From positions 576,001-640,000 of the forward strand of contig CAVXGR010000018.1 of NCBI GenBank assembly GCA_963761335.1: a stretch of 64,000 nt of DNA, read 5' to 3'. This DNA is from an uncultured delta proteobacterium. Its GTDB lineage: Bacteria > Desulfobacterota > Binatia > HRBIN30 > BPIQ01. The position numbers were made by a program, and so were the translations under genes. Below the pieces are notes generated by a model that saw nothing but the letters and a program-made list of their open reading frames with translations, was not told the DNA's origin and did no database searches. Within the stretch, counting starts at the first letter, position 1. Each line of letters opens with the position of its first letter. Below, piece after piece: positions 3,475 through 30,681 of the stretch.

Positions 3475-5265
3475 ATGTGGCGAATCTCTTGGGCCCGGGC
3501 AGCGGCGGCGGCGCGCCTGCTCGCCGAGCTCGCCGGATTCGCGGCGCTGCTGTTCGTGACCCGCTTCATCGCCCGCGGACACCTGGTCCCGCAGATGGAT
3601 CAGGAATGTCACATCGGCGGCATCGCCATCGACGTGCTCCGGCACGGAGTGCGCTTTCCGCTGATGGTGTACGCTCCCAACGAGTACGACAACGGCTCCT
3701 TCTTCAGCGGTCTCCTGGCGGCGGCGTCCTTCTCGCTCTTCGGTCGCAATCTCCTGGCCTTGAAGCTGGTCACGCACCTGATCTGTGCCGCCGGAGCCGT
3801 GGCCACCCTGTGGCTCTTGCGGGGCTGCCTCGAGGAGCTTGGGCTGACGACGCGGAAGGTGTACTGGGCAGCCGTCGCCGTGCTGATCGTCGAGATCGCC
3901 GTGGCCCCGCGCGTGGTGACCCTGGTCTCGATGTACGCCGTCGGCAACCACGCCGAGGGCTGCGCCATCGATACCATTCTGCTGGCGCTCTACTCGCACC
4001 GGGCGCCGCGGAGATCGGCGGCGCGCACCGCCGCCTTCTGGGCGCTGGTGGGGATTGGGCTCTACCTGAACAAAGGGACCTTCCTGGTCATTCCCGTGCT
4101 GGGCGCGGCGGAGGTTGCGCTCGGCTGGCGTTCGCGCCGCCGCCTCGTCGCCGCCCTGGGCGGGTTTGTCGCGGGTATCCTTCCGGAGCTGCTGGTCGTT
4201 GCCCGGCGCCACGCGATGGGCTGGGCGACGATGGCCTCCAAGGCCGAGAACAACTCGCGGGCGTTTCCTCGCGCTTTCGCCGACAGCTTCCTGACTCTTG
4301 CCGATAAGCGACCCGAGCTCCTGCTCCTGTGGGTCATTGCCCTGGTCGCCGGTGGGCTGTTGCTGGCGGGCGCTCTGCGTCGCCGTTGGAGCGGCGGCGA
4401 GGCAGACCTGTGCGCCGGCGCCGCGCCGCCGGTGGCGCTGGCGCTGGTGGTGGGTGTCACCTGCATGCATCTGGCGGCGATGACGGTGATGGCCCAGGGC
4501 GGTCTCGACGCCTACGCGATCTACAGCTATCCCGCGCTGGCCGTGCTGGTCGCGCTACTGGTTGCCTGGGGATGCGCCCAGGCGGAGGCGCACCGGGCCG
4601 GAGGCGGTGTCCTGGTCGGTATCGCCGCAGTGGCGATGGCGCTGGTGGTCTATCGTCCCGAGGCGCTGACCTGGGGAACCGCCGAGGTTTCGGAGCTGTG
4701 GCACGACCGGGCTGGCGCGGCCTGCTCCTGGCGCTTTGCGGAAGGCTTCATGCGCGAGCAGCACTACGGCCTGGCGCCCGGGCAGACTCGTGAGCAGCAC
4801 GCGATTGCCCGCTGCCGCTCTCTCAGCGATCGGGATCAGGTGCTCGACTGCATCGGCGGAATCGGCCGCGAGCTCAACTGGAGGCAGGGGGGGCGGGTGC
4901 ACGGGACGCCGCCGCCGGAGCTCGATGCGGCGGAGCGCCGCGCCTACGCCTACTACTACGGCACTCACCGGGGCGGCGACACGACGGCATGCCGCGACTT
5001 CGATGATACCCAGCTGGTGGCGGAATGTGAGTCCGCCGTGCAGCTGGACTGTCTCATCTTCGGCGACGTCTCCACGCGCTTCGTCGCCGGCCGCGGGCTC
5101 GGCCGACCGCGATGCAGCCTCGCGGCGCCCCCGATGGACGGCTACTGGATGGCGATGCGCGCCGAGCTCCTCGGGAGGCCGGGACACCGGGGCCCCGACC
5201 TCGGCGGCGGGCTCGGGGACAACGATCTGCGGTCCTGTCAGGCGGTTTTCGACGCCTGCTACTGA
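3475..5265 (+). CDS. Polytopic membrane protein, GT-C/ArnT-like glycosyltransferase candidate, with Cys-rich C-terminal domain
   Basis: ATG at 3475. About 10-11 hydrophobic segments, an acidic DQE loop after TM1, and a soluble C-terminus with many Cys. Confidence 0.55.
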   Translation: MWRISWARAAAAARLLAELAGFAALLFVTRFIARGHLVPQMDQECHIGGIAIDVLRHGVRFPLMVYAPNEYDNGSFFSGLLAAASFSLFGRNLLALKLVTHLICAAGAVATLWLLRGCLEELGLTTRKVYWAAVAVLIVEIAVAPRVVTLVSMYAVGNHAEGCAIDTILLALYSHRAPRRSAARTAAFWALVGIGLYLNKGTFLVIPVLGAAEVALGWRSRRRLVAALGGFVAGILPELLVVARRHAMGWATMASKAENNSRAFPRAFADSFLTLADKRPELLLLWVIALVAGGLLLAGALRRRWSGGEADLCAGAAPPVALALVVGVTCMHLAAMTVMAQGGLDAYAIYSYPALAVLVALLVAWGCAQAEAHRAGGGVLVGIAAVAMALVVYRPEALTWGTAEVSELWHDRAGAACSWRFAEGFMREQHYGLAPGQTREQHAIARCRSLSDRDQVLDCIGGIGRELNWRQGGRVHGTPPPELDAAERRAYAYYYGTHRGGDTTACRDFDDTQLVAECESAVQLDCLIFGDVSTRFVAGRGLGRPRCSLAAPPMDGYWMAMRAELLGRPGHRGPDLGGGLGDNDLRSCQAVFDACY

Positions 5266-6284
5266 GCGGTGGCATTTGCCGCCGCTGCCGGCGCGAGGAG
5301 ACGCTGCCGCCTCAGAAACTCGGCGAGCTGGTCGGCCACCAGGCGGTTGCCCGCAACCGTCATGTGGCCGTGAAAGAGACGAGCGCGCTGCTCGAGCGGC
5401 AGACTTTCGACCGGCGGGAACGCATCCACCGTCAGGAGATGATTCGCCCGGGCGCAGTCGAGTGCGGCGTCTTTGATCTGCAGATGCTCGGCGGTTGCGG
5501 TGGGTTGCTGTGGTTGCGCCAGGACGACGATGCGGAGGCCGTGGGCACGCTCGAAAGCGGCGAGGCGTTTCATGAGCAAGCAGGCAACCTCTCTGCCCTG
5601 GTGATGCACCACCGTCTCGTAGGGGCCCTCCCAGTTGATGAAGGTCGGAAAGAGCAGATCGGCGGTGACGCTGACCGACAGCAGGCGGCGCAGCGGGTCG
5701 TACACGGATGGCGGGGGAATCAGGGCGGAATGAAGCCGCAGCTGGCCGTCCTCGACGTCGAAGTACGGCTTCGGGTGCCCCGACCAGTACGACATCTCGC
5801 AGCGAAGGACGTCATGGGGGATGAAGCTGACGATGACGATGTTCGGTGCGTAGACGGGGGCGAGCTGCTCGGCGCGGAGCACGGCCTGGTCCAAGCCGAA
5901 GCCGGGGACGGCGGCGTTGATCACTCGGTGGCCGGTGCGCCGCTCGAGGATGGCCGGCCACGAGTAGCGGTCGTCAACCTGGTCGCCGAAGGCGAACGAG
6001 TCGCCCACGGCGAGCATCGGCGGGCGCGCCGCCGGCGGCGGCGGATTGCCGTTGCGGCGCGTGCCGTACTCTCCGATGCTGATGTTGAAGCCTCGCGGGT
6101 GATGAATCGAGATGCCGGCTTTTGGAATGCGACCGGCGACCGGGTCGACGACGGCGTAGCGACCGCTGTTGGGTCCTCCCAGCGAGAAGACGGTGTGCGT
6201 GGCAATACGCACCGAGAGCTCGATGAGAAGGAGAACGACTGTGGTGCCCAGCAATAGGCGCAGCGCGACGCGTTTGCGCGTCAT
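5259..6284 (-). CDS. SGNH/GDSL hydrolase-family protein with N-terminal membrane anchor
   Basis: AVGDSFAFG (block I), INAAVPGFGLDQ (block II) and GHMTVAGN (block V). Confidence 0.85.
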   Translation of the reverse strand: MTRKRVALRLLLGTTVVLLLIELSVRIATHTVFSLGGPNSGRYAVVDPVAGRIPKAGISIHHPRGFNISIGEYGTRRNGNPPPPAARPPMLAVGDSFAFGDQVDDRYSWPAILERRTGHRVINAAVPGFGLDQAVLRAEQLAPVYAPNIVIVSFIPHDVLRCEMSYWSGHPKPYFDVEDGQLRLHSALIPPPSVYDPLRRLLSVSVTADLLFPTFINWEGPYETVVHHQGREVACLLMKRLAAFERAHGLRIVVLAQPQQPTATAEHLQIKDAALDCARANHLLTVDAFPPVESLPLEQRARLFHGHMTVAGNRLVADQLAEFLRRQRLLAPAAAANATAQ

Positions 6285-6309
6285 CAATTCGGTGGAAAGG
6301 GTGTGGTGA

Positions 6310-7348
6310 CTAGCCCTGCGCTGGCATCGGTGGCGGGAGGGCGCCCGGCGGCGGGGAGACCATCATCGCCGGAGAGGGCGTGAGGGGAAGGGGCGACGGA
6401 GAGGGCGCGATGGGCAGGGGCGTCGGTGGAGGTCCTCCGGCGGCCGGCGTGGCCTCCATGCCGACGCAGGTGTCTGTCCCTGCCTGCATGTAAGAGTCAC
6501 AGGCATCGGCTTGCCCGAGGGCGGCCTTGGCGAGGGTGCGCTCGCGCGCCGGAGCCGACTCCGCCAGGTCCTTCAGGCCCTTGGCGTAGAAGCCCTTCCT
6601 GTCGATGGTGTTCTTGCAGTCCTCGACGATCTCCTTGGAGTCCTTGCCCTGGGCGCTGCAGAGAGACTTGTCGAGCTTGATGAAGGCGCGGCAAACTCCC
6701 TGCAGCTCGCCGGCAGCGGAGCACTGGCTCGCGTCGCCGGAGCGCAGCGCTTTGCGGAAGTTGTCGCAGATGCTGGCCACGCGCGGATCGGCGTGGCACT
6801 CCTCCAGCTTTACGTCGTCGAACATGAACGAGCGCCCATTCGGGTAGGTGCGCAGCTCGTGGAAGATCGAGCGCATGGCCCGACAGTCTTTGATCTGGCT
6901 GTCAGTGGTGAGCAGCTGGCAGGGCGCGTCAGAGTCGGTTGCCACGGCTCCACAGGTGACGAGCTCCGATGCCCGTGGTGCCAGGGCGCGCACCTCGTCA
7001 CTCTTCAGCACGGCAGCGTCCTTGGCGTGGCCCGAGAGGGCCGCCACGTACCGCTCGCAGCGATCGTGAGCCGCGGTATTGGCCGTGGCGACAGCCGGCA
7101 CCGGCGTGGGTGATCCGGCGGGCGCGCTCGTCGTCTCGTTTGCCGCCGTGGCCGTCGCCGGGGGCGCCACCGCAGTGGCGGTGGCGGCGGGGGGCGCCGC
7201 TGTCGGGCTCGCGACGAGCCACCGCGTGCGTCGGCGTCGGGGTCTTCTGCGGCTCGGCGGGTCGAGTGCAGCCGGCGAGCGGCAGGGCCAGGAGAACCAC
7301 GGAGCCGGTTCCCCGGACGATCAGTTTCGCGAAGCGAGAACGGGCCAC
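6310..7348 (-). CDS. Cys-rich lipoprotein with Pro/Thr/Ala linkers; apparent frameshift near 7220
   Basis: ORF 6998..7348 begins with a signal peptide and lipobox (LALPLAGC) followed by TPTPT. The Ala/Pro/Thr linker continues in the frame of ORF 6310..7170, which carries a Cys-rich domain and a Pro-rich tail. Confidence 0.6.
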
Positions 7349-7349
7349 G

Positions 7350-8354
7350 TCACAGCCCGTACCACTTTCGCCGCAGGGGCGTCAACTTGGGGTTTGTCGT
7401 CCGGGTGCTGGTCGTCTGCGCCCGACGCGCCGGGTAGGCTCCCGGGTGACCCTCCCGAAAGCGGCGGCCCAGTGGGTCGTCGCGTCGCGGCTGAGCGATT
7501 CCGGTCGCCCGGCTGGTCGGGGTCATCCGTTCGCCGGCGCCATTGATCCACGATCTCTCGGAGCTCTGCAGCTCGCGCAGCAGCTGCGGCCGCTGGCGCA
7601 GAAGGGCGATTGCCTCGGGCTGCGGAAGAGCGCGGTGGAGCAGGGCTCGGTACCTCTGCAGACGGGCGCGCCACTGTGCCGGCGAGAGGGTGGTCCTGGT
7701 CGGAGGCGGGCAGGGCACCTGCTGGCCGAGCAGCATGATCATCAAACCCTCGTAGTTGAAAGCCGGGTCGCCCGTCGCACAGCGACGATTGCCGCTTTCG
7801 ACCCACGGGCCACAGGTGGAGTAGTGATCGAGCAGGGGCTGCAGGCCGGATACATCCACCGAAGCGCGACAGTCTCGCCAGAAGCGCGTCTCGCTCTTGC
7901 GGTTGAACTTGTAATGCACGCTGAGAAACCACCGCAGGTAGTCCCAGTGGGCGCCGAGCGCCTCGTTGGCGAAGGAGCGGTCGGACGGCCGATTTCCCGA
8001 CTGCAGCCCGCCGATGAGATAGGCGATCTCGACAATGACCATGTGGAGGGCGGTGGACTCGAGCGGCTCGACGAACCCGTAGGCATTGCCCAGGGCAACC
8101 GTGTTGCCCTTCCAGAAATCCCGGTGGCGGCCGCTGCGGAACTGCGGGGGGACCCGATAGGAGAATGAGTACCTGCCCGGCAGACCCCAATCGAACTTGA
8201 TGCCCAGTTTCCAGGTGGGCCGCACCTCGCGGTACAGGTCGACGATATCGATGCCGAGCTGCCGGTGTAGAAATGGCGGCATCAGGGTGGTGGTTGCTTC
8301 GCCGACGCCGACAACCTTTCGAGCCTCAAGATCTCGACGGTCCTCCGGCATCAT
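7350..8354 (-). pseudogene. Tryptophan-halogenase-family (FAD-dependent) gene with two in-frame internal deletions
   Basis: GVGEAT, TWKLGIKFDW, FRSGR..FWKGN.VALGNAYGFVEPLESTALH and FLSVHY...FWR motifs are present. The GxGxxG FAD-binding segment and the central region (including WxWxIP) are absent. Length is about 334 aa. Confidence 0.8.
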
Positions 8355-9816
8355 GAATCCCTTCACTGATGTCTCGAGGTGCTGTGGTTGCCCAGCGCGC
8401 CAGGATTTCGGCCGTGCGCGAGTCGGTCTCGTTCGCCAGGAGCTCGAACAGTCGCCGCGAGACGGCCATGTGCTCCTTGCACTCGAATGAATGCGGGCGC
8501 TGCCCGAAGAGATCTCCCCGGGTGGCAAAGCTGTGCACGGGGTCGATGCCGCAGAAGGGCTTGTTCCAGCAGTCGGCGCACATCGGCTGCGCGTCGAGGA
8601 GGGAAGCCGCGGCAATGGCGCGCACGGTGGGGTGCTGCAGCACCTCGGCCAGGGTCAGGGTGCGCACATCGCCGATCGCGAAGATCGGATCGCCGGTGAA
8701 GTCGATCAGCCGTGCCTCCTCGCAGGGAAAGACGCGTCCATCGGCATCGTAGGCGAGCTCGGACGTTCCAGCTGCGGCTGGAGACTGGATGTCGCACACT
8801 CCAGGGTCTTCCGAGGTGAGGATGCGAGTCGCGAAGATCCGTGCGGTACCCTCGACGATGTCGACGCCCTGGCGGTTGAGCTCGAGGATGTAATCCAGGG
8901 CGCGCCGATAGAAGTCGAGGTACTCCTCAGCGGAGTAGCCGATCTCCGACCAGACGTCGCCGGAGATGCCGAGAGGATTGAGAGGTCGCAGGTAGATCGC
9001 GCCGAGTCCCCGGGCCACGTACTCGTCCACCAGCCCTTGCGGTTCCTCGAGGGTTCGCCGAGTTACATTGGCGCGCGCCTCGATCGCCCGGATGCGAGAA
9101 TCCTGGCCGCTCTCCACAGACTGGCGCTGAAAGTAATCGATCCAGCGAATCACCTCGGCATGGGTGCTGCCGCCGATCCACCGGCGATTCCAATCGTGAA
9201 TGCCCGCCGGTCCGTCGAGATCCGTCCGCACGCGGACGTCGTTGGCGATCAGCCACTCGGCAGACTCCGCGGTCATGGCGGTGAGATTGGTCACCAGTCG
9301 GAAGGCCAGCGTCTTGCCGGCCGTCTGCATGTTGCGCGAGCGCGCCAGATCCAGCAGATGGCGCAGCACGTCGAAGCTCGCCAGGGGCTCGCCGTCGCCG
9401 GCGCGGAGCTCGAAGGTGATCGACGGCGAAGTGCTCTGCAGAGCTACCTCGGCCACTTGCGCGGCAGTCTCCGGGCTCATGTCGACGGCTGTTCCTTCGC
9501 CGCTCCGGCGAAGGTTGACGACGTGCAGATGCGGCCCGCGACCGACGTGGCGATTGCGCCGCGCCACCCGGTCGGCGAAGGCGTCGAGGTCGAGCCCGTC
9601 GCGCAGGAAGCCCATGCGCTTGAACTCCTCAAACCGGGAATGACCTTCGGCAACGCGTCCGGCGAGCAGCTCATCCAGCTCCGCCTCGCTCAGAAGCGCC
9701 CAGTCGCCGGCGTCGTTGGTGACCAGGATCTTGCCGGCGACGCGTCCCCAGCGGAAGAATCCGAGCCGGTCCTCAGCGAGATCCTGGCGCGACAGCGTCA
9801 GGCTGCGTCGGTCCAC
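8326..9816 (-). CDS. HxsB-like radical SAM/SPASM protein lacking the CxxxCxxC motif
   Basis: Colinear with HxsB at 23771 (ILVTNDAGDW, GPHLH, LVTNLT, LDGP, YLDFYRRALDYILELNRQG, CADC.NKPFCG), but the cluster-binding motif is missing. Confidence 0.85.
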   Translation of the reverse strand: MDRRSLTLSRQDLAEDRLGFFRWGRVAGKILVTNDAGDWALLSEAELDELLAGRVAEGHSRFEEFKRMGFLRDGLDLDAFADRVARRNRHVGRGPHLHVVNLRRSGEGTAVDMSPETAAQVAEVALQSTSPSITFELRAGDGEPLASFDVLRHLLDLARSRNMQTAGKTLAFRLVTNLTAMTAESAEWLIANDVRVRTDLDGPAGIHDWNRRWIGGSTHAEVIRWIDYFQRQSVESGQDSRIRAIEARANVTRRTLEEPQGLVDEYVARGLGAIYLRPLNPLGISGDVWSEIGYSAEEYLDFYRRALDYILELNRQGVDIVEGTARIFATRILTSEDPGVCDIQSPAAAGTSELAYDADGRVFPCEEARLIDFTGDPIFAIGDVRTLTLAEVLQHPTVRAIAAASLLDAQPMCADCWNKPFCGIDPVHSFATRGDLFGQRPHSFECKEHMAVSRRLFELLANETDSRTAEILARWATTAPRDISEGIHDAGGPSRS

Positions 9817-10055
9817 TAACTCTCCTCCGCCAGAGCCGCCTGACGCATTCGCGAAATGGTCTCGTGCAAGACGTGATTGCAGAAGGCGTTGGCTACCATC
9901 TCGGCATCATCTTCGGCAACGCCGGAGATGATGGTCTCGATGGCGTCGGCGGCGGCAGTCACTTCGATCTGGGCGTGCTCGGCGTAGGCCGCCGCGGCGG
10001 CGTCGACGGCCTCAGGCAGGTATAGCGATCGGTCGAAGGCGATGCGCTTGGTCAT
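9816..10055 (-). CDS. Small HxsD-like protein (79 aa)
   Basis: FDRSLYLPEAVDAAAAAY...ANAFCNHVL. Paralogue of 23533..23778, and translationally coupled to its neighbours. Confidence 0.75.
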   Translation of the reverse strand: MTKRIAFDRSLYLPEAVDAAAAAYAEHAQIEVTAAADAIETIISGVAEDDAEMVANAFCNHVLHETISRMRQAALAEES

Positions 10056-10540
10056 CACTCCGTTTCCGGATCCTTCTTCGGCCCGGGCTCCTCGGTGGCG
10101 CCGCCGTGCTTCTCCTCCCATGGGACCATGATCTCCAGCGGGTCCTCGAGCAGCTCTTCGGCCTCCAGCTCGGCCAGCAGGTCGTCGACGGAGGGTGCCG
10201 AGGCGGCGGCGCGAAGCGCAGCCGCCGTGTAGTAGTCGCGAATATGCGTGGTCGCCTGGGAGAGGCGCAGGCGGGTGGCCTGCGACAGAAGCTCGTTGGC
10301 GAACTCACCGGCGAGGGCGTCCAGCTCCGCGGGTGTTGCAGGGGTCCGCGAGGTCAGCCTCGCGGTCACCACTTGCGGCTTCGGCCTCGACAGATAGACG
10401 AAGCACTTCTCGACGAACAGGTAGCAGGCGCCGTAGATGGCGTCGAGAGGATAGATGCTCTCGTCGACCTCGAAGGAGATCTGGTCAGGTCCCAGAGAGA
10501 AGCCGAGGCGAGACTGCTGCTCGGCGTCGGTCGCGGACAC
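10055..10540 (-). CDS. hxsD: His-Xaa-Ser system protein HxsD
   Basis: VDESIYPLDAIYGACYLF...GEFANELLSQATR...EDPLEIMVPWEEK, the HxsD pattern; sits next to an hxsB-like gene. Confidence 0.85.
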   Translation of the reverse strand: MSATDAEQQSRLGFSLGPDQISFEVDESIYPLDAIYGACYLFVEKCFVYLSRPKPQVVTARLTSRTPATPAELDALAGEFANELLSQATRLRLSQATTHIRDYYTAAALRAAASAPSVDDLLAELEAEELLEDPLEIMVPWEEKHGGATEEPGPKKDPETE

Positions 10541-10544
10541 TGCG

Positions 10545-11201
10545 CTACCTCAACCTCCGATCCACGGGACCCGAGAACAGGCGCAGGCGCTCCGACTGCG
10601 GCATCAGCGCCGCCATAAGAGGCCTGTTCTTCCACTTGGTTTCGTTGCGGGCGAGCACGTGGGCCAAGCGCGCAACCGCTTGGGCCAATCCTTCTTCCGT
10701 GGGCAGGTCTCCTCGTCCGCCATTCATGACCACGAGATCGAGACCCTTCGTGTGGACCAAGCCCTGCGGACGCCCATCGTTGCGGCAGAGATGGACGCGG
10801 TGTTCTCGACCCCGCGGATTCACCAGGGTCAGCACGCAGGTGCCGTCAACGACTCCGGTCAGGCCTGCGACGCGCCACCCATATGCCACCAATGATCCCT
10901 TGGCGAGTGGCCGAAGCAGCTCCCAGGGAGGCGGCGCGCCGAGGGTGCTCGCCGGCCCGGCGTCGACGACAGCGGGCTGCGGATCTACGGCCTTTCGAGG
11001 GTCGCCGACTGGCTCTGGAGCTGGAACGATCGCCTCCGTGGCGGCGGTCGCCGCTTGGATGGATCCCTCTTGATCCAGGGCAGAGCCGGTGACTGGCTCG
11101 GCGCGGCGTGCTGAGGCAAAGCTGGTCCGTGCCAGCCCCGCGGCCCACATCATGGCCGTACCGGCTGCGAGCCTTCCGACCAAATCACGTCGCGACAGCA
11201 T
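10545..11201 (-). CDS. Tat-exported 'GW'-domain protein (copy 2)
   Basis: GGAGG RBS upstream of ATG 11201; MLSRRDLVGRLAAG twin-arginine signal; close paralogue of 13956..14543. Confidence 0.8.
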   Translation of the reverse strand: MLSRRDLVGRLAAGTAMMWAAGLARTSFASARRAEPVTGSALDQEGSIQAATAATEAIVPAPEPVGDPRKAVDPQPAVVDAGPASTLGAPPPWELLRPLAKGSLVAYGWRVAGLTGVVDGTCVLTLVNPRGREHRVHLCRNDGRPQGLVHTKGLDLVVMNGGRGDLPTEEGLAQAVARLAHVLARNETKWKNRPLMAALMPQSERLRLFSGPVDRRLR

Positions 11202-11270
11202 GCCGCACCTCCTTCCGTTCATCCAATATTTCTCCTGCTACCACAGGCATTTTACGTTCGCAACGCGACA

Positions 11271-13468: not shown

Positions 13469-13858
13469 TCACCACGATCCGTGCGAGCCGTGACTGCCAT
13501 GAGACCCGTGACTCCCGTGGGACCCGTGGCTGCCGTGCGAGCCGTGGCTTCCATGTGAACCGTGGCTTCCATGCGAGCCGTGGCTGCCGTGCGAGCCGTG
13601 GCTGCCGTGTGAGCCATGGCTGCCGTGCGAGCCGTGGCTGCCGTGCGAGCCGTGGCTGCCGTGCGAGCCGTGCGAGGCGTGCGACATGTGCTGCGCCAGC
13701 ATCATGCTTTCATTGCTGGGGTCGGTCCGCAGGGCCTGAGCCGCTGCCGCAGGATCGACGGCACCGACCGGTTTCACCGCCTGGCGGGCCTCGTCGCGGC
13801 TGAGAAAATCCAATGGCGTCTTCCGCAATGAGGGAAGCGCGTTCTTCTTCTGGCTCAT
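13469..13858 (-). CDS. hxsA: His-Xaa-Ser repeat RiPP precursor (HxsA-type): 56-aa leader + HMS-HAS-(HGS)22-W
   Basis: 129-aa ORF with a GAAGGAGG RBS upstream. 24 tandem HxS triplets with synonymous codon variation; located among hxsB/hxsD homologues. Confidence 0.92.
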
Positions 13859-22009: not shown

Positions 22010-22942
22010 ATGGAGACGATCCAGCTGGGCGGGCAGTGGTTCGACTACGCCGACGTCCTCATCGACGTCATGTTCGGCTACGCCTGCAACGTCCAGTGCG
22101 ACTACTGCTCGATCACCGACGACATGCGCCGGGAGAACATGACGACGGCGTCGGTCATCGCGCAGCTCGCCGAGGCGCGGGCGCGCGGCGCCACCCGGGT
22201 CGCCTTTGGCGGCGGCGAGCCGACCATCCGGCGGAGCCTGTTGCCGCTGGCGCGCTGGTGCCGCGATCGCGGCTATCGCTCGATCAAGGTCGCCTCCAAC
22301 GGGCTCATGTACTCGTATCGCTCCTTCGCGGAGGAGGCGAGCGAGGCGGGCATCAACTCGTTCCACATCTCCTTCATGGCGCACACGCCCGAGCTCTACG
22401 AGAAGATCATGGGAAAGCCGGGGGCGCTGTCGCTGGTGACCGAGGGGCTCCGCAACCTGATCGCCCTGGGCCACAAGCCGGTCGGCGACCTGATCATCAA
22501 GAGCGACACCTGGATGCATCTCGCGGACATCGTCGAGCACTGGGCCGCTCTCGGTGTCGAGACCTTCAACCTGTGGTTGGTGTCGCTGTCGGATCGCAAC
22601 CGCGACAATCTCGACTCGCTGTTGCCGGTCAGCACCATGCGCGAGGGGATCGGCGCTGCCTTCGAGCGCGGCCGGAGCCTCGGGGTCACGGTTCTGTCGC
22701 GCCACATTCCGCGCTGCATGCTCCCCGGGTACGAGGATCAGGTCGCCGATCTGCGCGACGACAAGGTGCTGGTGGTGACGCCGCGCACCTCTTTCGCACT
22801 CTGGGAATCGAAGATCTCTCCCAACACCTACGCCGAGAAGTGCCAGGGCTGCCGCCACCAGCACGGCGTCTGCCTCGGGCTGCGCCAGGACTACCTGGAG
22901 CGCTACGGCGACGCCGAGGTGCAGCCGGAGTACGCGCAATGA
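22010..22942 (+). CDS. Radical SAM protein (HxsC-like) with twitch-type C-terminal Cys
   Basis: ATG 22010; CNVQCDYC, GGGEPT, ASNG, IPRC and CQGC...VCLG...Y...YG..E..P. Confidence 0.9.
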   Translation: METIQLGGQWFDYADVLIDVMFGYACNVQCDYCSITDDMRRENMTTASVIAQLAEARARGATRVAFGGGEPTIRRSLLPLARWCRDRGYRSIKVASNGLMYSYRSFAEEASEAGINSFHISFMAHTPELYEKIMGKPGALSLVTEGLRNLIALGHKPVGDLIIKSDTWMHLADIVEHWAALGVETFNLWLVSLSDRNRDNLDSLLPVSTMREGIGAAFERGRSLGVTVLSRHIPRCMLPGYEDQVADLRDDKVLVVTPRTSFALWESKISPNTYAEKCQGCRHQHGVCLGLRQDYLERYGDAEVQPEYAQ

Positions 22943-23071: not shown

Positions 23072-23527
23072 ATGACTCACACCCGAATAGAAACCCTCGA
23101 CGCGCAGGGGTCGACGCTGACCCTGTCGCTCGACATCGGCCTGTATCCGCGCGACGTGCTCTACGCCGCCGCCTACGTGTTCCTCGACCGCGCCTACGTG
23201 CTCCTCGACCGCGATGGCTCGCGTTTCCTCGTGCACCTGCGGGGCAAGCAGCTCCTCGAAGAGGAGGCTCTGCGGGCCATGGCCGGCGAGTTCGAGAACG
23301 AGCTCCTCGCCCAGGCGCTGCGGCAGCGGGTGACCCGCACCAACCAGAGACTCATCGAGGACATCGCCTCCCTGGCGATCGCCGGTGCCGCCGGCGCCGC
23401 AGTGCACGGCGACGTCGCGTCCGACGACTCCGGGCTGATCGATGTCGACGCCCCCGGCGAGGACGGCTTTCTCGACGACCCCCTGGGCATTGCCGAGCCC
23501 TGGGAGTCCAAGAAGAAGGACGGGTGA
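23072..23527 (+). CDS. hxsD: His-Xaa-Ser system protein HxsD (second copy)
   Basis: LDIGLYPRDVLYAAAYVFLDRAYV...GEFENELLAQALR...LDDPLGIAEPWESK. Confidence 0.88.
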   Translation: MTHTRIETLDAQGSTLTLSLDIGLYPRDVLYAAAYVFLDRAYVLLDRDGSRFLVHLRGKQLLEEEALRAMAGEFENELLAQALRQRVTRTNQRLIEDIASLAIAGAAGAAVHGDVASDDSGLIDVDAPGEDGFLDDPLGIAEPWESKKKDG

Positions 23528-23532
23528 GCGCG

Positions 23533-23778
23533 ATGTCTGCCGGCACCGCCGAGCCCGCCACCGTGAAGCTGCACTGCGCCCTGTACATGCGCGAGGCGAT
23601 CACGGACGCGGCGGCGACCTTTGCCGACTTCGCTTCGTTCGTCCTCCGCCTCGACGGCGATCACTTTCTCGTCGAGGTCAGCGACATCGATGCCGAGGTC
23701 GAGGGCGATGTGGTGGCGGAGTTCTGCAACTTCGCCCTGGCGCACACGGCGATGCGCCGCAAGAGCCAGCATGCTTGA
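23533..23778 (+). CDS. Small HxsD-like protein (second copy)
   Basis: LHCALYMREAITDAAATF...VAEFCNFAL; paralogue of 9816..10055. Alternative GTG start at 23524. Confidence 0.75.
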   Translation: MSAGTAEPATVKLHCALYMREAITDAAATFADFASFVLRLDGDHFLVEVSDIDAEVEGDVVAEFCNFALAHTAMRRKSQHA

Positions 23779-25321
23779 CGCCGGGGCCCGCATCGAGAAC
23801 GGCAGCCGCGATCTGCTGCCGCGCGGCCGCCAGGTCGACTTCACCAGGCTCTCCAGCCCCGACCGCTGGCAGCCGGAGCTCGCCGTTCCCTTCAATCAGC
23901 GGATGATCGGCGAGAAGGTGTTGATCAGCAACGATCTCGGCGATTGGTTGCTGCTCTCCCAGGAGGAGTTCCGCGATCTCCTCGAAGGCCGACCACAGCC
24001 GGGGGAGCCTCTCTACGAGAAGCTGGGGCGCGCCAACTTCATCGCCGCCGAGATCGACGTCCATGCCCAGGCAGAGCGCTGGCGGCGCAAGAAGCAGTAC
24101 CTGTTTCAGGGGCCGACGCTGCACGCCTTCGTGCTGACGCATCGCTGCAACCACGGATGCCAGTACTGCCACAGCTCGATCGTCGGCATGGAGCGCACCG
24201 ACACGGACATGTCGATGGAGGTTGCCGAGCGCGCCGTCGATATGGCCTTCCAGACCACTGCCTGGGCGCTGACCATCGAGTTCCAGGGCGGTGAGCCGAC
24301 GGCCAACTGGGACGTGCTCCGCCATGTCGTCGAGTACGCACGCGAGAAGAACATCACCGCCGGGAAGGTCCTTTCCTTCGCGCTGGTGACCAACCTCTCG
24401 CTCATGGACGACGAGAAGCTCGACTATCTCCTCGACCGCCGCGTGCAGATCTGCACCAGCCTCGACGGTCCCGCCGACCTGCACAACAAGATCCGCGTCT
24501 TCAAGGGCGGCAACAGCCACGAGATGGTCCTCGGCTGGATGAAGAAGATCAACCAGCGCTACGCCGACATGGGCCTGGACGTGAACCATTACCGGGTCGA
24601 GGCCCTGCCGACGATCACCCGTCCCAGCCTGACGCGCTGGAGGGACATCGTCGACCAGTTCGTCGCAGCCGGCTGCCGCGCCGTCTTCCTGCGCAAGCTG
24701 GACCCATTCGGATTCGCGGCGCGCAGCGCCAAGACGCTGGGCTACTCCATGGACGAGTTCCTGGAGTTCTACGCCAATGCCGTGGACTACATCATCGAGC
24801 TCAATCGCCAGGGCGTGCAGGTGATGGAGCGGCACGCGGCGATCATGCTCAACAAGATTCTCGCCGACGAAGAGCCCAACTATCTCGACCTGCGCATCCC
24901 CGGCGGCGCCTGCATCGGCCAGCTCGGCTACGCGCCGGACGGCAGCATCTACTCCTCCGACGAGGGCCGCTTCGTCGCCTCCATGGGCGACGACATGTTC
25001 AGGATCGGCAGCGTGTACGACAGCTACCACGAGCTGATGACCAGCGGCGCCACCCGCGCCCTGGTGATGGCGGGCCTCAACGACGGCCAGCCGGACTGCG
25101 TCAGCTGCGTCTACAAGCCGTGGTGCGGCCAGCAGGTCGAGTACAACTACAAGACCCAGGGCAGTCTGCACGGCCACATGCGCGACTCGACCTGGTGCAA
25201 GAAGCACAAGTCGATCTTCGACTACCTCATGCACAAGCTCGAGTCGGCCGACGAGCGGGACATGGAGATGTTCCGCCTGTGGACGACCAACCGCACCCTG
25301 GAGCACTTCATCATCGAATAG
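23771..25321 (+). CDS. hxsB: His-Xaa-Ser system radical SAM maturase HxsB
   Basis: LISNDLGDW N-terminus, GPTLH..VLTHRCNHGCQYC, IEFQGGEP, SLDGP, YLDLR.P.GA.IGQLGY..DG.IY.SDEGR and CVSCVYKPWCG...C. Confidence 0.93.
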   Translation: MLDAGARIENGSRDLLPRGRQVDFTRLSSPDRWQPELAVPFNQRMIGEKVLISNDLGDWLLLSQEEFRDLLEGRPQPGEPLYEKLGRANFIAAEIDVHAQAERWRRKKQYLFQGPTLHAFVLTHRCNHGCQYCHSSIVGMERTDTDMSMEVAERAVDMAFQTTAWALTIEFQGGEPTANWDVLRHVVEYAREKNITAGKVLSFALVTNLSLMDDEKLDYLLDRRVQICTSLDGPADLHNKIRVFKGGNSHEMVLGWMKKINQRYADMGLDVNHYRVEALPTITRPSLTRWRDIVDQFVAAGCRAVFLRKLDPFGFAARSAKTLGYSMDEFLEFYANAVDYIIELNRQGVQVMERHAAIMLNKILADEEPNYLDLRIPGGACIGQLGYAPDGSIYSSDEGRFVASMGDDMFRIGSVYDSYHELMTSGATRALVMAGLNDGQPDCVSCVYKPWCGQQVEYNYKTQGSLHGHMRDSTWCKKHKSIFDYLMHKLESADERDMEMFRLWTTNRTLEHFIIE

Positions 25322-25529: not shown

Positions 25530-26429
25530 TCAGTGTTGCGCGAACTGCTCGAGAATGCGCTCGCGCGGCAGGGCCTTTGCCTTCATGTGCTCCTGTCGTT
25601 CGCGCACCAGGCTCTCGTAGGTCGGCGGCGGCTCGGGATCGCGGTAGAGCACCCCGGTGTAGAGCTCCTTGCCGTAGGTCTGCGCCAGCGCCATCGCCTT
25701 CACCCGGTGGAGCGGCTTGTAGCCGATCTTGGCGAGCGATTTCATCCCCTCGCGATGCGCCTTGAGCTGCCGGTCGGGCTCACCGAAGGTGACGCAGGGC
25801 GACTGCACGTTGACGAAGGCGAAGCCCGGGAAGCGGATCGCCTCCTCGATGATCGCCGCCAGCCCCGGCATGTCGGCGGGTGTCCCCTGGGCCACGAAGT
25901 GGGCACCGTAGCCGAGAACGTAGAGGAGCGGGTTCACCGGATCCTCGAGACTGCCCTCCGGAGAGGTGACCGTGTGGCGACCGCGGGCCGAGGTCGGCGA
26001 CAGCTGCCCCTTGGTGAGGCCGTACGTCTGGTTGTCCATGACGATGTAGGTGAGGTCGATGTTGCGGCGAATCACGTGCGGCAGATGTCCGCCGCCGATC
26101 GAGAAGCCGTCGCCGTCGCCGCCGGCGACCAGGACCAGTAGATCGGGGTTGGCCAGCTTGATGCCCTGGGCGATCGGCAGGGCGCGCCCGTGCACGCTGT
26201 TGAAGCCGTAGGCGGTGGTGTATCCGGGAATGCGGCTCGAGCAGCCGATGCCGGAGACGAAGGCAATCTCGTGAGGCGGCCTGCCGATGTGGGCCAGGGC
26301 GCGGTTCAGGGCCGTGAGCACCCCGAAATCTCCACAGCCCGGGCACCAGATCGGCTTGAGCTCGCTCTTGAAGTCCGACGGGTCGAAGGCCGGGGTCGAG
26401 GGGCAGCTGAGGGCAGTGTTCACGTGCAT
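25530..26429 (-). CDS. korB: 2-oxoacid:ferredoxin oxidoreductase beta subunit
   Basis: WCPGCGDFG, SGIGCSSR, HGRALP.A.G.K, GGDGD TPP-binding motif, NQTYGLTKGQ.SPT and SPCVTF. Confidence 0.93.
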   Translation of the reverse strand: MHVNTALSCPSTPAFDPSDFKSELKPIWCPGCGDFGVLTALNRALAHIGRPPHEIAFVSGIGCSSRIPGYTTAYGFNSVHGRALPIAQGIKLANPDLLVLVAGGDGDGFSIGGGHLPHVIRRNIDLTYIVMDNQTYGLTKGQLSPTSARGRHTVTSPEGSLEDPVNPLLYVLGYGAHFVAQGTPADMPGLAAIIEEAIRFPGFAFVNVQSPCVTFGEPDRQLKAHREGMKSLAKIGYKPLHRVKAMALAQTYGKELYTGVLYRDPEPPPTYESLVRERQEHMKAKALPRERILEQFAQH

Positions 26430-26439
26430 GGTGTCTCCG

Positions 26440-28230
26440 TCATTCGGCGGCTTGCAGCGCGTCCTCATGGCGGCGCTGCAGGCGCAGGGCGAGCTCGCCG
26501 AGGTGCTCGACGATCTCGGTGGGCTGGAAGGGGATGGCGCCGCTGCGCGCCAACGACTCGATTCCGGGGGGCAGGTCGACGTACATGCGCATGAGGCGGA
26601 AGAGCTGCCCCTGATACGACTGCTCGACCACCAGGCCGGCGTGCACGCCGGTGAGAAACTCGAGATAGGTCTCCTCGACCACCGGGTAGAGGAGCAGCGG
26701 TGTGAGCAGCTTGACGCGCAGGCCGGCATCCCGGGCGAGACGCAGCGCCTCGCGGCAGACGCCCGCGGTGCTGCCCCAGCTGATCAGCGCCAGGGCGGCG
26801 CCGGGATCGCCTTCGATGCGGAAGAGGTCGCTCTGGGCGCGCAGCGCATCGAACTTGTGAAAGCGCTTCTCGGTCATGCGCGCGTGCACCGCACCGCTGG
26901 CGGTGGGCGCGCCGGCGTCGTTGTGCTCGATGCCGGCGCCCTGGTAGTTGCCGCCGAGCATGCCCGGGTGGCTGATGGGGCTCACCCCGTCGTCGGTGAA
27001 GCGGAAGCGCCGGTAGCTCTGCAGCTCGGCGTCGGTCGGCTCGCGGCGCTCGAGCCGCGCGAACTGGGTCGTGTCGATCGGGTCGAGAGACTCCTTGCGC
27101 TGTGCGATCTCCTGATCGGAGAGGATGACCACCGGGGTCTGAAAGCGCTCGGCGACGTTGAAGGCGTGCACGGTCACCGCGAAGGTGTCGGCGACACAGG
27201 TCGGCGCCAGCACCGGGCGCAGCACGTCGCCGTGCGCGGAGAACACCGCCTGGAACAGGTCCGCCTGCTCCGACTTGGTCGGCATCCCCGTCGACGGGCC
27301 GCCGCGCTGCACGTCGACGACCACCAAGGGCAGCTCGGCGATGCTCGCCAGGCCGAGCATCTCGGTTTTCAGTGACATGCCGGGGCCGGAGGTCGCGGTC
27401 ATCGACTTCTTCCCGGCGAACGACGCCCCCAGGGCCGCGCCGACGCCGGCGATCTCGTCCTCGGCCTGCAGCAGAGCGCCGCCGTACTTCCAGATCTCGC
27501 GGCTGAGGAACTGCATGATCTCGGTGGAAGGCGTGATCGGGTAGCCGCCGAAGAACTCGCAGCCGGCGAACAGCGCCGCCGCGGCGCACATCTCGTTGCC
27601 GTCCACCAGGAGCTTGCCGCCCGCCTTGCCGCTGGCCGGGGCGAGAGCGCGGGCGCGCTGCAGTGGGTGATCGGTGGCGTACTCGACGCCGGCGGCGAAG
27701 GCGTCCTCGGCTCCCTGGAGCACGGCCTGGCTCTTCTTGGCGAAGCGCTTGTGCATGCCGCGCAGCAGCGCCTCTCTGGCAATGCCGAACCAGCCGGCGA
27801 GCAGGCCGAGGACGACGATGTTCTTGGCGCGGTCGCCGCCCGAGGTGCGCCGCGCCATCTCGGCGATCGGCACGCTGCACACCTCGCTCGGCGACACCCC
27901 GATGAGCGGGATCTCGTCCGGCGGAATTCCGCAGCCGGCGTCGTAGATCACCACCGTCTTGCCGCCGACCGGCAGCTCGGCCCCGAACTTCATGAAGTCG
28001 TCCCAGTTGAGGGCGACGGCGACGTCCAGCGTGCCCGCCGAGTTGAAGATCGGCTCGTTCGAGATCCGCACCCGGCAGGAGGACTCGCCACCGCGGATCT
28101 GCGAGCCGAACGCCTTGGCCATGATCACGTGGTAGCCTTCGTAGGCGGCCGCCGAGGTGAGAGACTCGCCGGCAGACACGATGCCGTCTCCACCTGAGCC
28201 GGCCATCCCAATCATCAGGTCACTGTCCAT
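26440..28230 (-). CDS. korA: 2-oxoacid:ferredoxin oxidoreductase alpha subunit (gamma-alpha fusion)
   Basis: GSGGDG...QIRGGES, GYPITPSTE, EDEIA, TSGPG and QRGGPSTGMPTK.EQ.D. Confidence 0.93.
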   Translation of the reverse strand: MDSDLMIGMAGSGGDGIVSAGESLTSAAAYEGYHVIMAKAFGSQIRGGESSCRVRISNEPIFNSAGTLDVAVALNWDDFMKFGAELPVGGKTVVIYDAGCGIPPDEIPLIGVSPSEVCSVPIAEMARRTSGGDRAKNIVVLGLLAGWFGIAREALLRGMHKRFAKKSQAVLQGAEDAFAAGVEYATDHPLQRARALAPASGKAGGKLLVDGNEMCAAAALFAGCEFFGGYPITPSTEIMQFLSREIWKYGGALLQAEDEIAGVGAALGASFAGKKSMTATSGPGMSLKTEMLGLASIAELPLVVVDVQRGGPSTGMPTKSEQADLFQAVFSAHGDVLRPVLAPTCVADTFAVTVHAFNVAERFQTPVVILSDQEIAQRKESLDPIDTTQFARLERREPTDAELQSYRRFRFTDDGVSPISHPGMLGGNYQGAGIEHNDAGAPTASGAVHARMTEKRFHKFDALRAQSDLFRIEGDPGAALALISWGSTAGVCREALRLARDAGLRVKLLTPLLLYPVVEETYLEFLTGVHAGLVVEQSYQGQLFRLMRMYVDLPPGIESLARSGAIPFQPTEIVEHLGELALRLQRRHEDALQAAE

Positions 28231-28410
28231 TCTGCTCCTGTTCCTCGATTAAACGAGAAGAAGAGGGAGCAAAGCACGTGCCCGCTAACCCCACGGTCGA
28301 TGCGGCAACTCACGCCGGCAAAGATTCCCACCCTTGGGAATAATGTGCCGCCGAGCCCCCGAAAACCGGGAGCCCCACCTGCCCCTAATGGCCTGAGCAC
28401 AAAGGCGTAT

Positions 28411-29208
28411 CTACAGCAGCCGCGTCTTGAAGAAGTCGATGATCTCGTCCACGGCCTGGCGCGTCGGCTGGCCCTGCTCGTCGATCAGATGCAGGGTGAC
28501 GACGCTGTGCGGGTTCTTCATCGGGGCGTTGGGGTTGGCGGCGCTGTCGGGGAGGACGCGGGGCTGGAAGCGGTCGCCGAGCGCCTGCTGGTAGGCGGCG
28601 AAGCGCGCCGCCCGGCAGAAGCTGTCGCCCTCGAAGCGATAGGCGAGGACGGTGAGATCCTCGCGGTCGAGCCGTTCCTTGACCGCCTTCAGCTCCTCCG
28701 GGGCGATGTGCATGCCGGAGGCTTTCGCCAACGGCAGGGAGGGCTGCGACAGGACCGGCGCCCGCACCGCCGGCTCGAGCATCATCGACAGGGCGAAGTT
28801 GCCGGTGAAGCACATGCCGATGGCGCCGACCCCCTGGCCGCCGCAGAGCGGATGGGCACGCGCCGCCAGCGCCCGCAGCCACTGGGTGACCGGGCTCGAG
28901 GCGTTGGCGGCGAAGGCGCGGAACTCGGCGCTGATGCATCCCTTGATGATCGAGCTGGCTCCGTAGAGCGTCGACACCGGCCGTCCCGGCTGGCCGAACA
29001 GGTTCGGCATCCACACAGTGAAGCCGGCGTCGCGGACCCAGCGCGCGAAGCGGGCCACCTGCGGCGAAATCCCGGGCATCTCGGTCATGACGATGACCGC
29101 GGGACCGCTCCCGGCGACGAACACCAGCTTGGTCTCGCCGTTGAGAGTGATCTGCCGGTGCTCGAAATCGGCGAGCGGGTCGGTCTTCGAGAGATCGGTC
29201 TCTGCCAT
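28411..29208 (-). CDS. Dienelactone hydrolase family protein
   Basis: EMPG and nucleophile elbow GMCFTG; D and H triad candidates present. Confidence 0.85.
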   Translation of the reverse strand: MAETDLSKTDPLADFEHRQITLNGETKLVFVAGSGPAVIVMTEMPGISPQVARFARWVRDAGFTVWMPNLFGQPGRPVSTLYGASSIIKGCISAEFRAFAANASSPVTQWLRALAARAHPLCGGQGVGAIGMCFTGNFALSMMLEPAVRAPVLSQPSLPLAKASGMHIAPEELKAVKERLDREDLTVLAYRFEGDSFCRAARFAAYQQALGDRFQPRVLPDSAANPNAPMKNPHSVVTLHLIDEQGQPTRQAVDEIIDFFKTRLL

Positions 29209-29352
29209 CGATTGGGCCCTCCGCGGGCGACCGTAGCCAACTTTGCGGCGGTGCGCCATGATGGGAAAACTTGGTGGCCAGGCTGGCCGCGGTCCCAGGC
29301 AAACGCGGGTGGGTGTGCGAATCGCGCACGGCACCGCTATGATGGCGCCTCA

Positions 29353-30681
29353 ATGAATGCGCCTCGCACAAGCCCCGACTCCGGCAGCGGCCGAGGACTG
29401 GTGCTGGAAGAGCCGGAAGCTGAGGCCCGCGCCCTCAAGGCGGCGTACGTGCACTATCTGGCCGACTGCTGCCAGCGCTTCCTCGCCGTCGCCGGGGAGC
29501 TACCTCCCGAGCTGCGCCCGGCGCATGCGGCAATCGCGGCTCTGGTGCGGCAGGTGCTTCCACAGGGACGTCAGGCGATGCTCAACTGCTTCGCTTCACC
29601 GGCGGTGGGCACGGCGCTGCAGTGCGCCGAGCTGCGGCGCGACCTCGACGACTTCCGCGTCCGCATCGACAAGGCGGCGGCGGAGATGATGCCGCACCTG
29701 CTGCTGGAGATGGCGCTGCGAGGGCTCATCCCCCCGGGACAGTCTCTTCTCTGGGAGCACGGCGCGCCGTCGCTGGCTTCGCTCGCCGTCGGCGGCGAGC
29801 TCGTCCCGCCCGCCGCGGCCACCGGCCTGCGCTTCTCGGCCAGCCACGTCGCCGCGCTCGCCGGCGGCGCCGAGCTGGCGCGGTTGCCCCTGGAGCGCGA
29901 GGCGATGCGACAGACCTTGGCCGAGAACGCCGCCGGCGGCTTCCGCTTCGAGCGCCGTTTCCGCCGCCTCGGGAAGGTCACCCATTTCGCCACCGTCGAC
30001 CACAACCCCATCGCCGCCTTCGAGGCGCATCCCGACAAGGCGGGAAATCACATCGACCTCGGCGGTCGACCTGTGGGGGAGTGGACCGAGATGCTCGACC
30101 GCTGCTTTGCCCTGGTCGAGCGCTACCTGCCCGGCGAGCTCGCCGAGATGAGGATCATGCTCCGCGAGGTCATCCCGGTCGGCTACGACCCGCACCGCCA
30201 TCTGTCCGCCTCCTATCGCGAGGCCGTCGGCATCGTCTATCTGACGCTTCACCCGAGCGTCATGATCATGACCGAGGCTGTGGTGCACGAGTTCCAGCAC
30301 AACAAGTTCAACGTCTCGAGCTACGGAGCCGAGTACCTGGCGAACGCCTTCCATCCTCTCTACAAGAGCCCGGTGCGCCCCGACCCGCGACCGCTGTGGG
30401 GAATCCTCCTGGCGGTACACGCCTTTCTCCCCGTCGCCGAGCTCTATCGGCGCATGCGCGACGGCGGTGACCCGCTGGCGGCGCATCCCGATTTCGAGCG
30501 GCGCATGTCGGAGATCGATCTCAAGAACCACGAGGGCATGGAGATGCTCCGCGCCCACGCGCAGCTCACCGCCGCCGGCGGCGCCATGTTTGCCGAGCTG
30601 GAGAGCCTCGAGCGCCGCCATCTGGCCGAGCGCGCCGCCCGCGGCCTCGACAGCACGCCGACCGACGCCCACCTCGGATGA
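29353..30681 (+). CDS. HExxH-motif peptide-modifying protein (aKG-HExxH-like)
   Basis: ATG 29353; SAS...AVG.VYL...EAVVHEFQHNKF...LYKSPVRPDPRPLWGILLAVHAF, the signature of RiPP-associated HExxH proteins. Confidence 0.85.
   Translation: MNAPRTSPDSGSGRGLVLEEPEAEARALKAAYVHYLADCCQRFLAVAGELPPELRPAHAAIAALVRQVLPQGRQAMLNCFASPAVGTALQCAELRRDLDDFRVRIDKAAAEMMPHLLLEMALRGLIPPGQSLLWEHGAPSLASLAVGGELVPPAAATGLRFSASHVAALAGGAELARLPLEREAMRQTLAENAAGGFRFERRFRRLGKVTHFATVDHNPIAAFEAHPDKAGNHIDLGGRPVGEWTEMLDRCFALVERYLPGELAEMRIMLREVIPVGYDPHRHLSASYREAVGIVYLTLHPSVMIMTEAVVHEFQHNKFNVSSYGAEYLANAFHPLYKSPVRPDPRPLWGILLAVHAFLPVAELYRRMRDGGDPLAAHPDFERRMSEIDLKNHEGMEMLRAHAQLTAAGGAMFAELESLERRHLAERAARGLDSTPTDAHLG

Follow-up and report, generated by a model that had tools for sequence, protein, structure and literature searches.

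Why would a peptide maturation cluster that encodes an intact radical S-adenosylmethionine (SAM) maturase keep a second copy of that enzyme without the cysteines that hold its SAM-cleaving iron-sulfur cluster? The question is raised by a 64,000-nucleotide stretch of an uncultured delta proteobacterium (contig CAVXGR010000018.1, positions 576,001 to 640,000; hereafter the window), which carries a His-Xaa-Ser (HXS) cluster with two hxsB genes, each for a homologue of the radical-SAM/SPASM maturase HxsB. Canonical HXS systems were recently shown to protect against phages, with the active sites of both HxsB and HxsC required, and more than 99% of them have the four-gene layout HxsD-HxsB-HxsC-HxsA (Li et al., Nat Commun 2026, PMC13128918). 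In contrast, the window holds an expanded HxsA4-type system with two modules of hxsD, hxsD-like and hxsB, five HxsC-like genes (C1 to C5) and further extras. The HxsB of the left module, here called pseudo-HxsB (P0001), is very probably a retained protein that no longer performs radical chemistry. An earlier note on this DNA had proposed a retained pseudo-enzyme rather than a decaying gene, and given the clade-wide loss of the motif and a ratio of nonsynonymous to synonymous substitution rates (dN/dS) well below 1, this is the best reading.

The three genes lie in the same order on both arms, from 10540 down to 8326 on the left and from 23072 to 25321 on the right, and family matches confirm this order, which the note had described. 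The left genes are all on the minus strand: hxsD (10055-10540, 161 amino acids; TIGR03976, 50.5 bits against a cut-off of 50), hxsD-like (9816-10055, 79 amino acids; NF038315, 58.1 bits against a cut-off of 41) and pseudo-hxsB (8326-9816, 496 amino acids, GTG start). The stop codon of hxsD overlaps the ATG of hxsD-like by one nucleotide (TGATG), as does that of hxsD-like the GTG of pseudo-hxsB (TAGTG). Their plus-strand counterparts on the right are hxsD (23072-23527; TIGR03976, 55.2 bits), hxsD-like (23524-23778; NF038315, 59.4 bits) and the intact hxsB (23771-25321, with its ATG at 23771; TIGR03978, 506.1 bits). To call the module duplicated, as the note did, overstates the case: the left and right members of the pairs are only 36%, 31% and 34% identical. 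Together with the much closer orthologues found in other genomes, this marks the modules as two anciently diverged paralogues rather than a recent duplication. Because the window is about 68% G+C, open frames alone are weak evidence, and genes were called by third-position G+C and family matches.

Pseudo-HxsB aligns with the right HxsB at 36% identity over 467 residues, and the one large gap, of 13 residues, falls at the cluster loop. In the region of CxxxCxxC the right copy, whose motif is CNHGCQYC, reads GPTLHAFVLTHRCNHGCQYC... and the left reads GPHLHVVNLRRSGEGTAVDMS, while QGGEP on the right is GDGEP on the left. The translations thus agree with the note on the lost motif and on a frame that is otherwise full length and keeps SPASM-type cysteines (Pfam SPASM, PF13186, 26.1 bits against a cut-off of 21.5). 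The protein retains the domain order of canonical HxsB, an RRE-like N-terminal domain, a radical-SAM barrel (here without the cluster loop) and a SPASM-type C terminus, and its match to the HxsB family TIGR03978 spans positions 3-466 of 466. Its gene follows hxsD, and the neighbourhood used to define HxsB (HxsD, HxsC-type radical-SAM enzymes and a His-Xaa-Ser repeat protein) is present. It differs from canonical HxsB in lacking the cluster motif and in scoring 351.7 bits, under the curated TIGR03978 cut-off of 370; its Pfam Radical_SAM match (PF04055) reaches 19.1 bits, below the cut-off of 29.5, and covers profile positions 25-139 only. Two alternative sources of cluster ligands were considered. 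A relocated motif was rejected, there being six cysteines in all (341, 365, 413, 416, 422 and 446) and none within the first 340 residues. Ligands supplied in trans by HxsD or HxsD-like are unlikely, as the common cysteines of these partners (C46 and C59 in the window) are less than 90% conserved and three ligands are needed.

The loss is shared across a clade. Among the 119 best homologues of pseudo-HxsB, which are 56-66% identical to it and far closer to it than the right copy is, CxxxCxxC is missing in 98 and kept in 21. Of the 21 motif-bearing rows, 20 share a loop length of 25 residues; in the motif-less rows the loop measures 6-22 residues, with no conserved sequence (11 in the window). 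A tree built without the loop columns places three state changes, with one entirely motif-less clade of 95 rows (support 91) and two small pairs; a second tree, rooted on a distant, single-module, motif-bearing group, places two and is compatible with a single loss. Motif-bearing forms are basal on the trees. The orthologues come from metagenome proteins and from metagenome-assembled genomes (MAGs) titled Binatia, Polyangiaceae, Sandaracinaceae and 'Deltaproteobacteria'. A sample of 400 genomes from the window's own phylum held no close orthologue, the best match, at 34% identity, being a canonical HxsB.

The same division appears at the level of loci. Public MAGs provided 54 related loci, in which 47 copies were readable in full, 26 with the motif and 21 without. 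A distant group (42-48% identity) has it in 23 of 23 copies, and a close group (50-66% identity) lacks it in 21 of 24, the exceptions being L027, L028 and L031. Loci with a split or partial pseudo-hxsB (L026, L039, L047, L052, L065, L068, L075 and L078) were left out of the copy counts and of the dN/dS analysis; several of these come from long-read MAGs in which frameshifts are numerous in all genes alike. As the source of the missing motif, faulty assembly is excluded for practical purposes, and so is a deletion that arose very recently in this strain, since the loss recurs, with differing loop lengths, in independent homologues and loci from many metagenomes and genomes; the reading frame is also continuous across the site. 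Among public reads, only contigs from low-coverage soil and marsh metagenomes match parts of the stretch, and no RNA data set is among the matches listed; the loop, at about 9480-9520, lies outside all contigs of 99% identity, and one metagenome contig of about 90% likeness extends ungapped to 9498.

We then looked beyond this clade, at the best 150 representatives of 50%-identity clusters, of which the 128 with at least 430 residues were judged. CxxxCxxC is missing in 21 of these full-length representatives. A FastTree of 125 rows, rough at such depth, places at least eight state changes, six of them forced by well-supported branches. In the subfamily that includes both window copies, as delimited on this rough tree, 18 of 23 representative clusters are motif-less, so that a cluster-less HxsB is not a marginal occurrence. 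Nine of these 18 keep the CxxCx5C cysteines, most of them together with GGE; the other nine have lost the cysteines, and six of these GGE as well.

Motif-less copies are under purifying selection. Pairs of them give dN/dS values (NG86) of 0.24-0.35 at an unsaturated dS of 0.27-0.69, and the window copy differs from the nearest locus copy by a dN of 0.25 and a dS of 0.96. The earlier note's check, whether orthologues conserve the motif loss with dN/dS below 1, thereby speaks for its reading. For the same genome pairs, which share lineages and are hence non-independent, the ratios are 0.26-0.32 for C1, 0.14-0.21 for C2, 0.05-0.11 for C3, 0.13-0.20 for C4, 0.10-0.15 for C5 and 0.13-0.22 for hxsD; a C2 piece from L032, cut by a stop codon, gave meaningless values. 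Column by column, the N-terminal domain and the SPASM part are equally conserved in motif-less and motif-bearing rows, and the barrel is about 0.1 lower.

Despite its sub-threshold PF04055 score, pseudo-HxsB keeps the fold of the radical-SAM superfamily. An AlphaFold model built from 49 sequences has a mean predicted local distance difference test (pLDDT) score of 85.3 and a predicted template modelling (pTM) score of 0.86. Ahead of the barrel it shows three strands and three helices, which is the layout of the recognition elements (RREs) of ribosomally synthesized and post-translationally modified peptide (RiPP) pathways. Foldseek places CteB (5wgg) first, with an E value of 3e-18 over 480 columns that include the N-terminal domain, followed by anSME, TigE, ChlB and SuiB; a profile search of solved structures matched CteB and anSME from just past the cluster loop to the SPASM CxxC. 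These best structural matches (CteB, 5wgg/5why; anSME, 4k36-4k39; TigE, 8vpo; ChlB, 9gm3; SuiB, 5v1q) are 12-17% identical to pseudo-HxsB and, unlike it, are active enzymes with a CxxxCxxC cluster. In the C-terminal part, C413, C416 and C422 (CxxCx5C) occur in every one of the 120 rows, and C446 in 114 of them. The cysteines of a second auxiliary cluster are patchy, and the position after CxxCx5Cxxx is serine in 94 of 99 motif-less rows. Judged by these residues, pseudo-HxsB probably still holds one auxiliary cluster.

What might such a protein bind? The earlier note had suggested structure prediction of the complexes, and the model of pseudo-HxsB with its own HxsD and HxsD-like supports their association, with a score of 0.85 against 0.43 for the best of three controls. 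At the mark used for complexes, 116 of the 157 solved complexes pass, and so do 2 of the 215 mismatched pairs; these counts hold only roughly here because custom alignments and three chains were used. Contact agreement between runs is at least 61%, and the pLDDT of the partners at least 84. On pseudo-HxsB, the modelled interface comprises residues 1-22 and 72-92 of the N-terminal domain and residues 408-415 and 435-442 of the SPASM part, and includes the clade-invariant R22, D408, Q410, P411, Q439 and R440. For canonical HXS, the portion of the report at hand describes pull-downs with HxsC as bait, which found HxsC-HxsD but no stable HxsB-HxsC association, and none with HxsB or HxsD as bait (PMC13128918).

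The left module has a conserved fourth member, g10545 (10545-11222, minus strand), which lies directly upstream of hxsD and encodes a 225-amino-acid protein with a twin-arginine-type signal. It matches no Pfam or NCBIfam family; an atlas search returned 'Tat signal family' at 0.75, which serves as a lead only. Most of the 54 related loci preserve the synteny of a four-gene unit, g10545-hxsD-hxsD-like-pseudo-hxsB, with orthologues of the left hxsD in 27 (45-82% identical) and hxsD-like conserved in 19. In three loci titled Polyangiaceae or Binatia (L037, L052 and L075) the unit directly precedes C1-C5-hxsD-hxsD-like-hxsB in one co-directional array, and L033, L041 and L042 have the same array to the extent of their contigs. 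In L043 and L047 it stands alone and is followed by a halogenase gene, g6310 and g5259 (in L035 without the halogenase), which is the layout of the window. There, all on the minus strand, pseudo-hxsB is followed downstream by the remnant of a flavin-dependent (Trp-type) halogenase gene (7350-8330; partial PF04820 match), g6310 (6310-7170) and g5259 (5259-6287; a weak, sub-cut-off AlgX-like match). One Binatia-titled locus (L029:1-5446) has two motif-less pseudo-hxsB genes, 75% identical, on either side of g10545-hxsD-hxsD-like.

Motif-less copies occur together with an intact HxsB. All ten other genomes checked that carry a motif-less copy have exactly one further HxsB (467-510 bits), a count that rests partly on one genome flagged as unpublished (G415), and the window's own genome likewise holds one intact HxsB, making 11 of 11. 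A motif-bearing orthologue is the sole HxsB in two of the five genomes that carry one. The intact gene lies 30, 60 or 126 kb from the motif-less one on the same contig, or on another contig, and this separation in several genomes makes a heterodimer of the two proteins, one of the roles raised in the earlier note, less likely. In L027 a motif-bearing orthologue is found together with a second module, and the merger of modules therefore seems to be earlier than the loss of the motif; the MAG that contains L027 and L030 combines a copy with the motif and one without. In single-module loci with the motif, the copy is followed by two more radical-SAM genes of equal orientation, which are missing after motif-less copies; from this gene content, the left module appears to be stripped of all its radical enzymes. 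Loci with an intact HxsB carry their own A4, g10545 and g13021 genes, and there are several A4/g13021 pairs per genome. Related genomes (L052, L082-L087) have several precursor copies, each beside a g13021-like gene and often also a g10545-like one, and in L052 each of three A4 genes adjoins a g10545-like gene.

Could the protein still be an enzyme of another kind? Its barrel and auxiliary cluster might carry out a different reaction on the precursor (redox, lyase or proteolytic-type), or bind SAM or a related ligand uncleaved. We consider this unlikely, if worth keeping in mind: the SPASM cysteines are nearly invariant, the barrel is still under purifying selection, a pocket-forming fold is predicted at high confidence, and G142, E143 and P144, at least 90% conserved, are a remnant of the SAM-binding signature, so that some ligand binding in the old pocket is possible. 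The residues around the former active site tell against it. Cys278, Ser280 and Lys295 (right-copy numbering), common to motif-bearing rows and intact HxsB, are variable in motif-less rows, and GGE, intact in 20 of 21 motif-bearing rows, becomes GGE in 47, AGE in 32 and DGE in 6 (window included) of 99 motif-less rows, the first glycine being replaced in 48. No new conserved catalytic motif is seen, and the common Cys443, found in 92 of 99 motif-less rows, is serine in the window copy. The nine motif-less clusters of the subfamily that dispense with the CxxCx5C cysteines, some of them also with GGE, keep their full length, which favours a structural role over a cofactor-dependent one.

A second alternative is local decay, in which the left gene would be an unselected, intact-looking relic of a pseudoenzyme that functions elsewhere. 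Among the 172 columns with conservation of 90% or more, the window copy deviates at 15, ranking second of 120 rows (median 5.5). Its G+C content at third codon positions is 0.80, compared with 0.88-0.93 in the adjacent intact radical-SAM genes; in orthologous clusters this gap is just 0.02-0.06. Its 11-residue loop is among the shorter ones, and its TIGR03978 score falls below the 386-396 bits of some orthologues. The adjoining halogenase gene is a truncated remnant. We nonetheless hold local decay of the left arm in this genome to be quite improbable. The gene runs for 496 codons without a frameshift or stop and aligns with its orthologues over the full length; the low dN relative to dS to the nearest locus copy speaks for constraint, and its terminal branch (0.36) does not exceed the path leading to sister-clade members. 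Most of the 15 deviations are conservative (V/I/L, K/R, D/E), hxsD, hxsD-like, g10545, g6310 and g5259 are all intact, and the one-nucleotide overlaps are preserved. Besides the deviations, the base composition, the truncated neighbour and the surviving GEP residues, a few further points count against the reading favoured here. Motif-less copies are constrained, yet about twofold freer by dN/dS than their catalytic neighbours; at 66% G+C, open frames count for little; the control in which HxsD was replaced still scored 0.43, and the evidence for the complex is a model; the genome counts come from MAGs of unknown completeness, related genomes being non-independent; and our literature search found no experiments on any member of the clade.

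With these points weighed, we return to pseudo-HxsB as a retained protein without radical activity, for which a scaffold or substrate-handling role appears reasonably likely. The left hxsB product is best explained as a catalytically dead paralogue of HxsB: with all three ligand cysteines gone and the loop shortened, it cannot hold the SAM-cleaving [4Fe-4S] cluster, and it keeps the whole fold, from the RRE-like N-terminal domain through the barrel to a C-terminal domain whose four cysteines could fit one auxiliary [4Fe-4S] cluster. The one-base gene overlaps suggest that it is co-produced with its own HxsD and HxsD-like. The three would form a non-catalytic complex that binds or presents either the HxsA4 precursor or g10545, the Tat-signal protein encoded next door, and radical chemistry would fall to the intact HxsB and to the four HxsC-like enzymes of this system whose motifs are intact. 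On this view HxsA4 maturation would run on two merged modules, with pseudo-HxsB as a non-catalytic subunit. A cluster-less HxsB should not be able to serve alone, because active-site substitutions abolish the function of canonical HxsB (PMC13128918).

The putative substrate, the HxsA4-type precursor (13469-13858, minus strand, 129 amino acids), opens with a leader; 24 His-Xaa-Ser repeats, 22 of them HGS, begin at residue 57, and the chain ends in tryptophan. Its leader (residues 1-68) is 62-81% identical across related loci. It belongs to NF038313 (143.7 bits, cut-off 55) and differs in this from canonical HxsA, whose model TIGR03979 it matches weakly (20.7 bits, cut-off 121.65); a Pfam scan of the precursor gave no peptidoglycan-binding domain. 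The terminal tryptophan might have been the former target of the halogenase, whose remnant, set beside the L047 orthologue, is missing the GxGxxG stretch near its N terminus along with some 200 internal residues, the WxWxIP-type region among them.

Degenerate enzyme homologues that work as partners are known from other peptide pathways. In YcaO cyclodehydratase RiPP pathways, a non-catalytic E1-like ('ocin-ThiF-like') protein is kept as the subunit that binds the leader peptide; this is a working analogy only, its fold and chemistry being unrelated to those of pseudo-HxsB. NCBIfam also includes a pseudo-radical-SAM protein that, in a peptide system of Bacteroidales, accompanies a true maturase. 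Its 'pseudo-SAM/SPASM' family TIGR04347 likewise names a radical-SAM/SPASM homologue without a true SAM-cluster site. It is a different family (cut-off 525 bits), absent among the best 25 of 27 NCBIfam matches of pseudo-HxsB, the other two having E values above 0.0015. HxsB, HxsD, HxsC, HxsA1-4 and HxsD-like are curated NCBIfam families, and family scans of the cluster proteins turned up no model for a cluster-less HxsB. Many motif-less homologues are named 'His-Xaa-Ser system radical SAM maturase HxsB' at source, and two motif-less orthologues pass the TIGR03978 cut-off (395.6 and 386 bits); through such automatic naming, activity is inferred where the cofactor site is gone. A literature search, with subscription journals mostly outside its range and supplements unread, found no paper on cluster-less HxsB, HxsA4, HxsC4 or HxsD-like.

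A widespread branch in which a dead HxsB is kept beside a live one, as in many soil bacteria, offers a handle on the non-catalytic tasks of these maturases, namely precursor recognition, assembly with HxsD and holding of the auxiliary cluster, and suggests that multi-enzyme radical-SAM pathways may grow by the merging of modules followed by the silencing of one. More tentatively, and with a fair measure of doubt, cluster-less HxsB could form a large, old and recurrent class of pseudoenzymes. In that case g10545-HxsD-HxsD-like-pseudo-HxsB may be a dedicated substrate-delivery complex, made from a maturase set stripped of its radical enzymes, that chooses which HxsA4 precursors or sites the shared catalytic module (intact HxsB and HxsC-like enzymes) modifies; with C1, this would amount to a radical-SAM machine built on pseudoenzyme scaffolds.

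C1 (14913-16769, plus strand), assigned by family matches and sequence, is a second conserved pseudo-radical-SAM protein within the same cluster. It is an HxsC-like homologue without CxxxCxxC, its Pfam Radical_SAM match is significant and begins only at profile position 30, and the motif is absent from 10 of 10 orthologues. The cluster therefore encodes two cluster-less radical-SAM homologues, C1 and the left HxsB. The other HxsC/HxsC4-like genes, also on the plus strand, are C2 (16688-18631), C3 (18654-19691) and C5 (about 22010-22942), each with an intact motif, and C4 (19695-22007) with two CxxxCxxC motifs; orthologues keep the motif in 19 of 19 cases for C2, 15 of 15 for C3 and 7 of 7 for C5. 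C4 is a 770-amino-acid fusion with CxxxCxxC at residues 229 and 479, the first half B12-binding radical-SAM-like and the second HxsC4-like. A scan with PADLOC 2.0 matched no specific model; all it returned for the intact radical-SAM genes was a generic likeness to viperin-type proteins.

Directly after the intact hxsB, at 25530-28230 on the minus strand, lie genes for the alpha and beta subunits of a 2-oxoacid:ferredoxin oxidoreductase, possibly a low-potential electron source for the radical-SAM enzymes or merely a neighbour. An open reading frame of 793 amino acids follows (28300-30681, plus strand), and its C-terminal residues 600-766 match an aKG-HExxH-type peptide beta-hydroxylase domain (TIGR04267, 79.7 bits), which makes it a candidate for another peptide-modifying enzyme near the cluster. 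Farther along the same strand (30919-37680), a reading frame of 2253 amino acids combines SpvB, FG-GAP, TcdB mid/N and RHS-repeat domains in a Pfam scan, an architecture of the Tc-toxin type (TcB/TcC-like).

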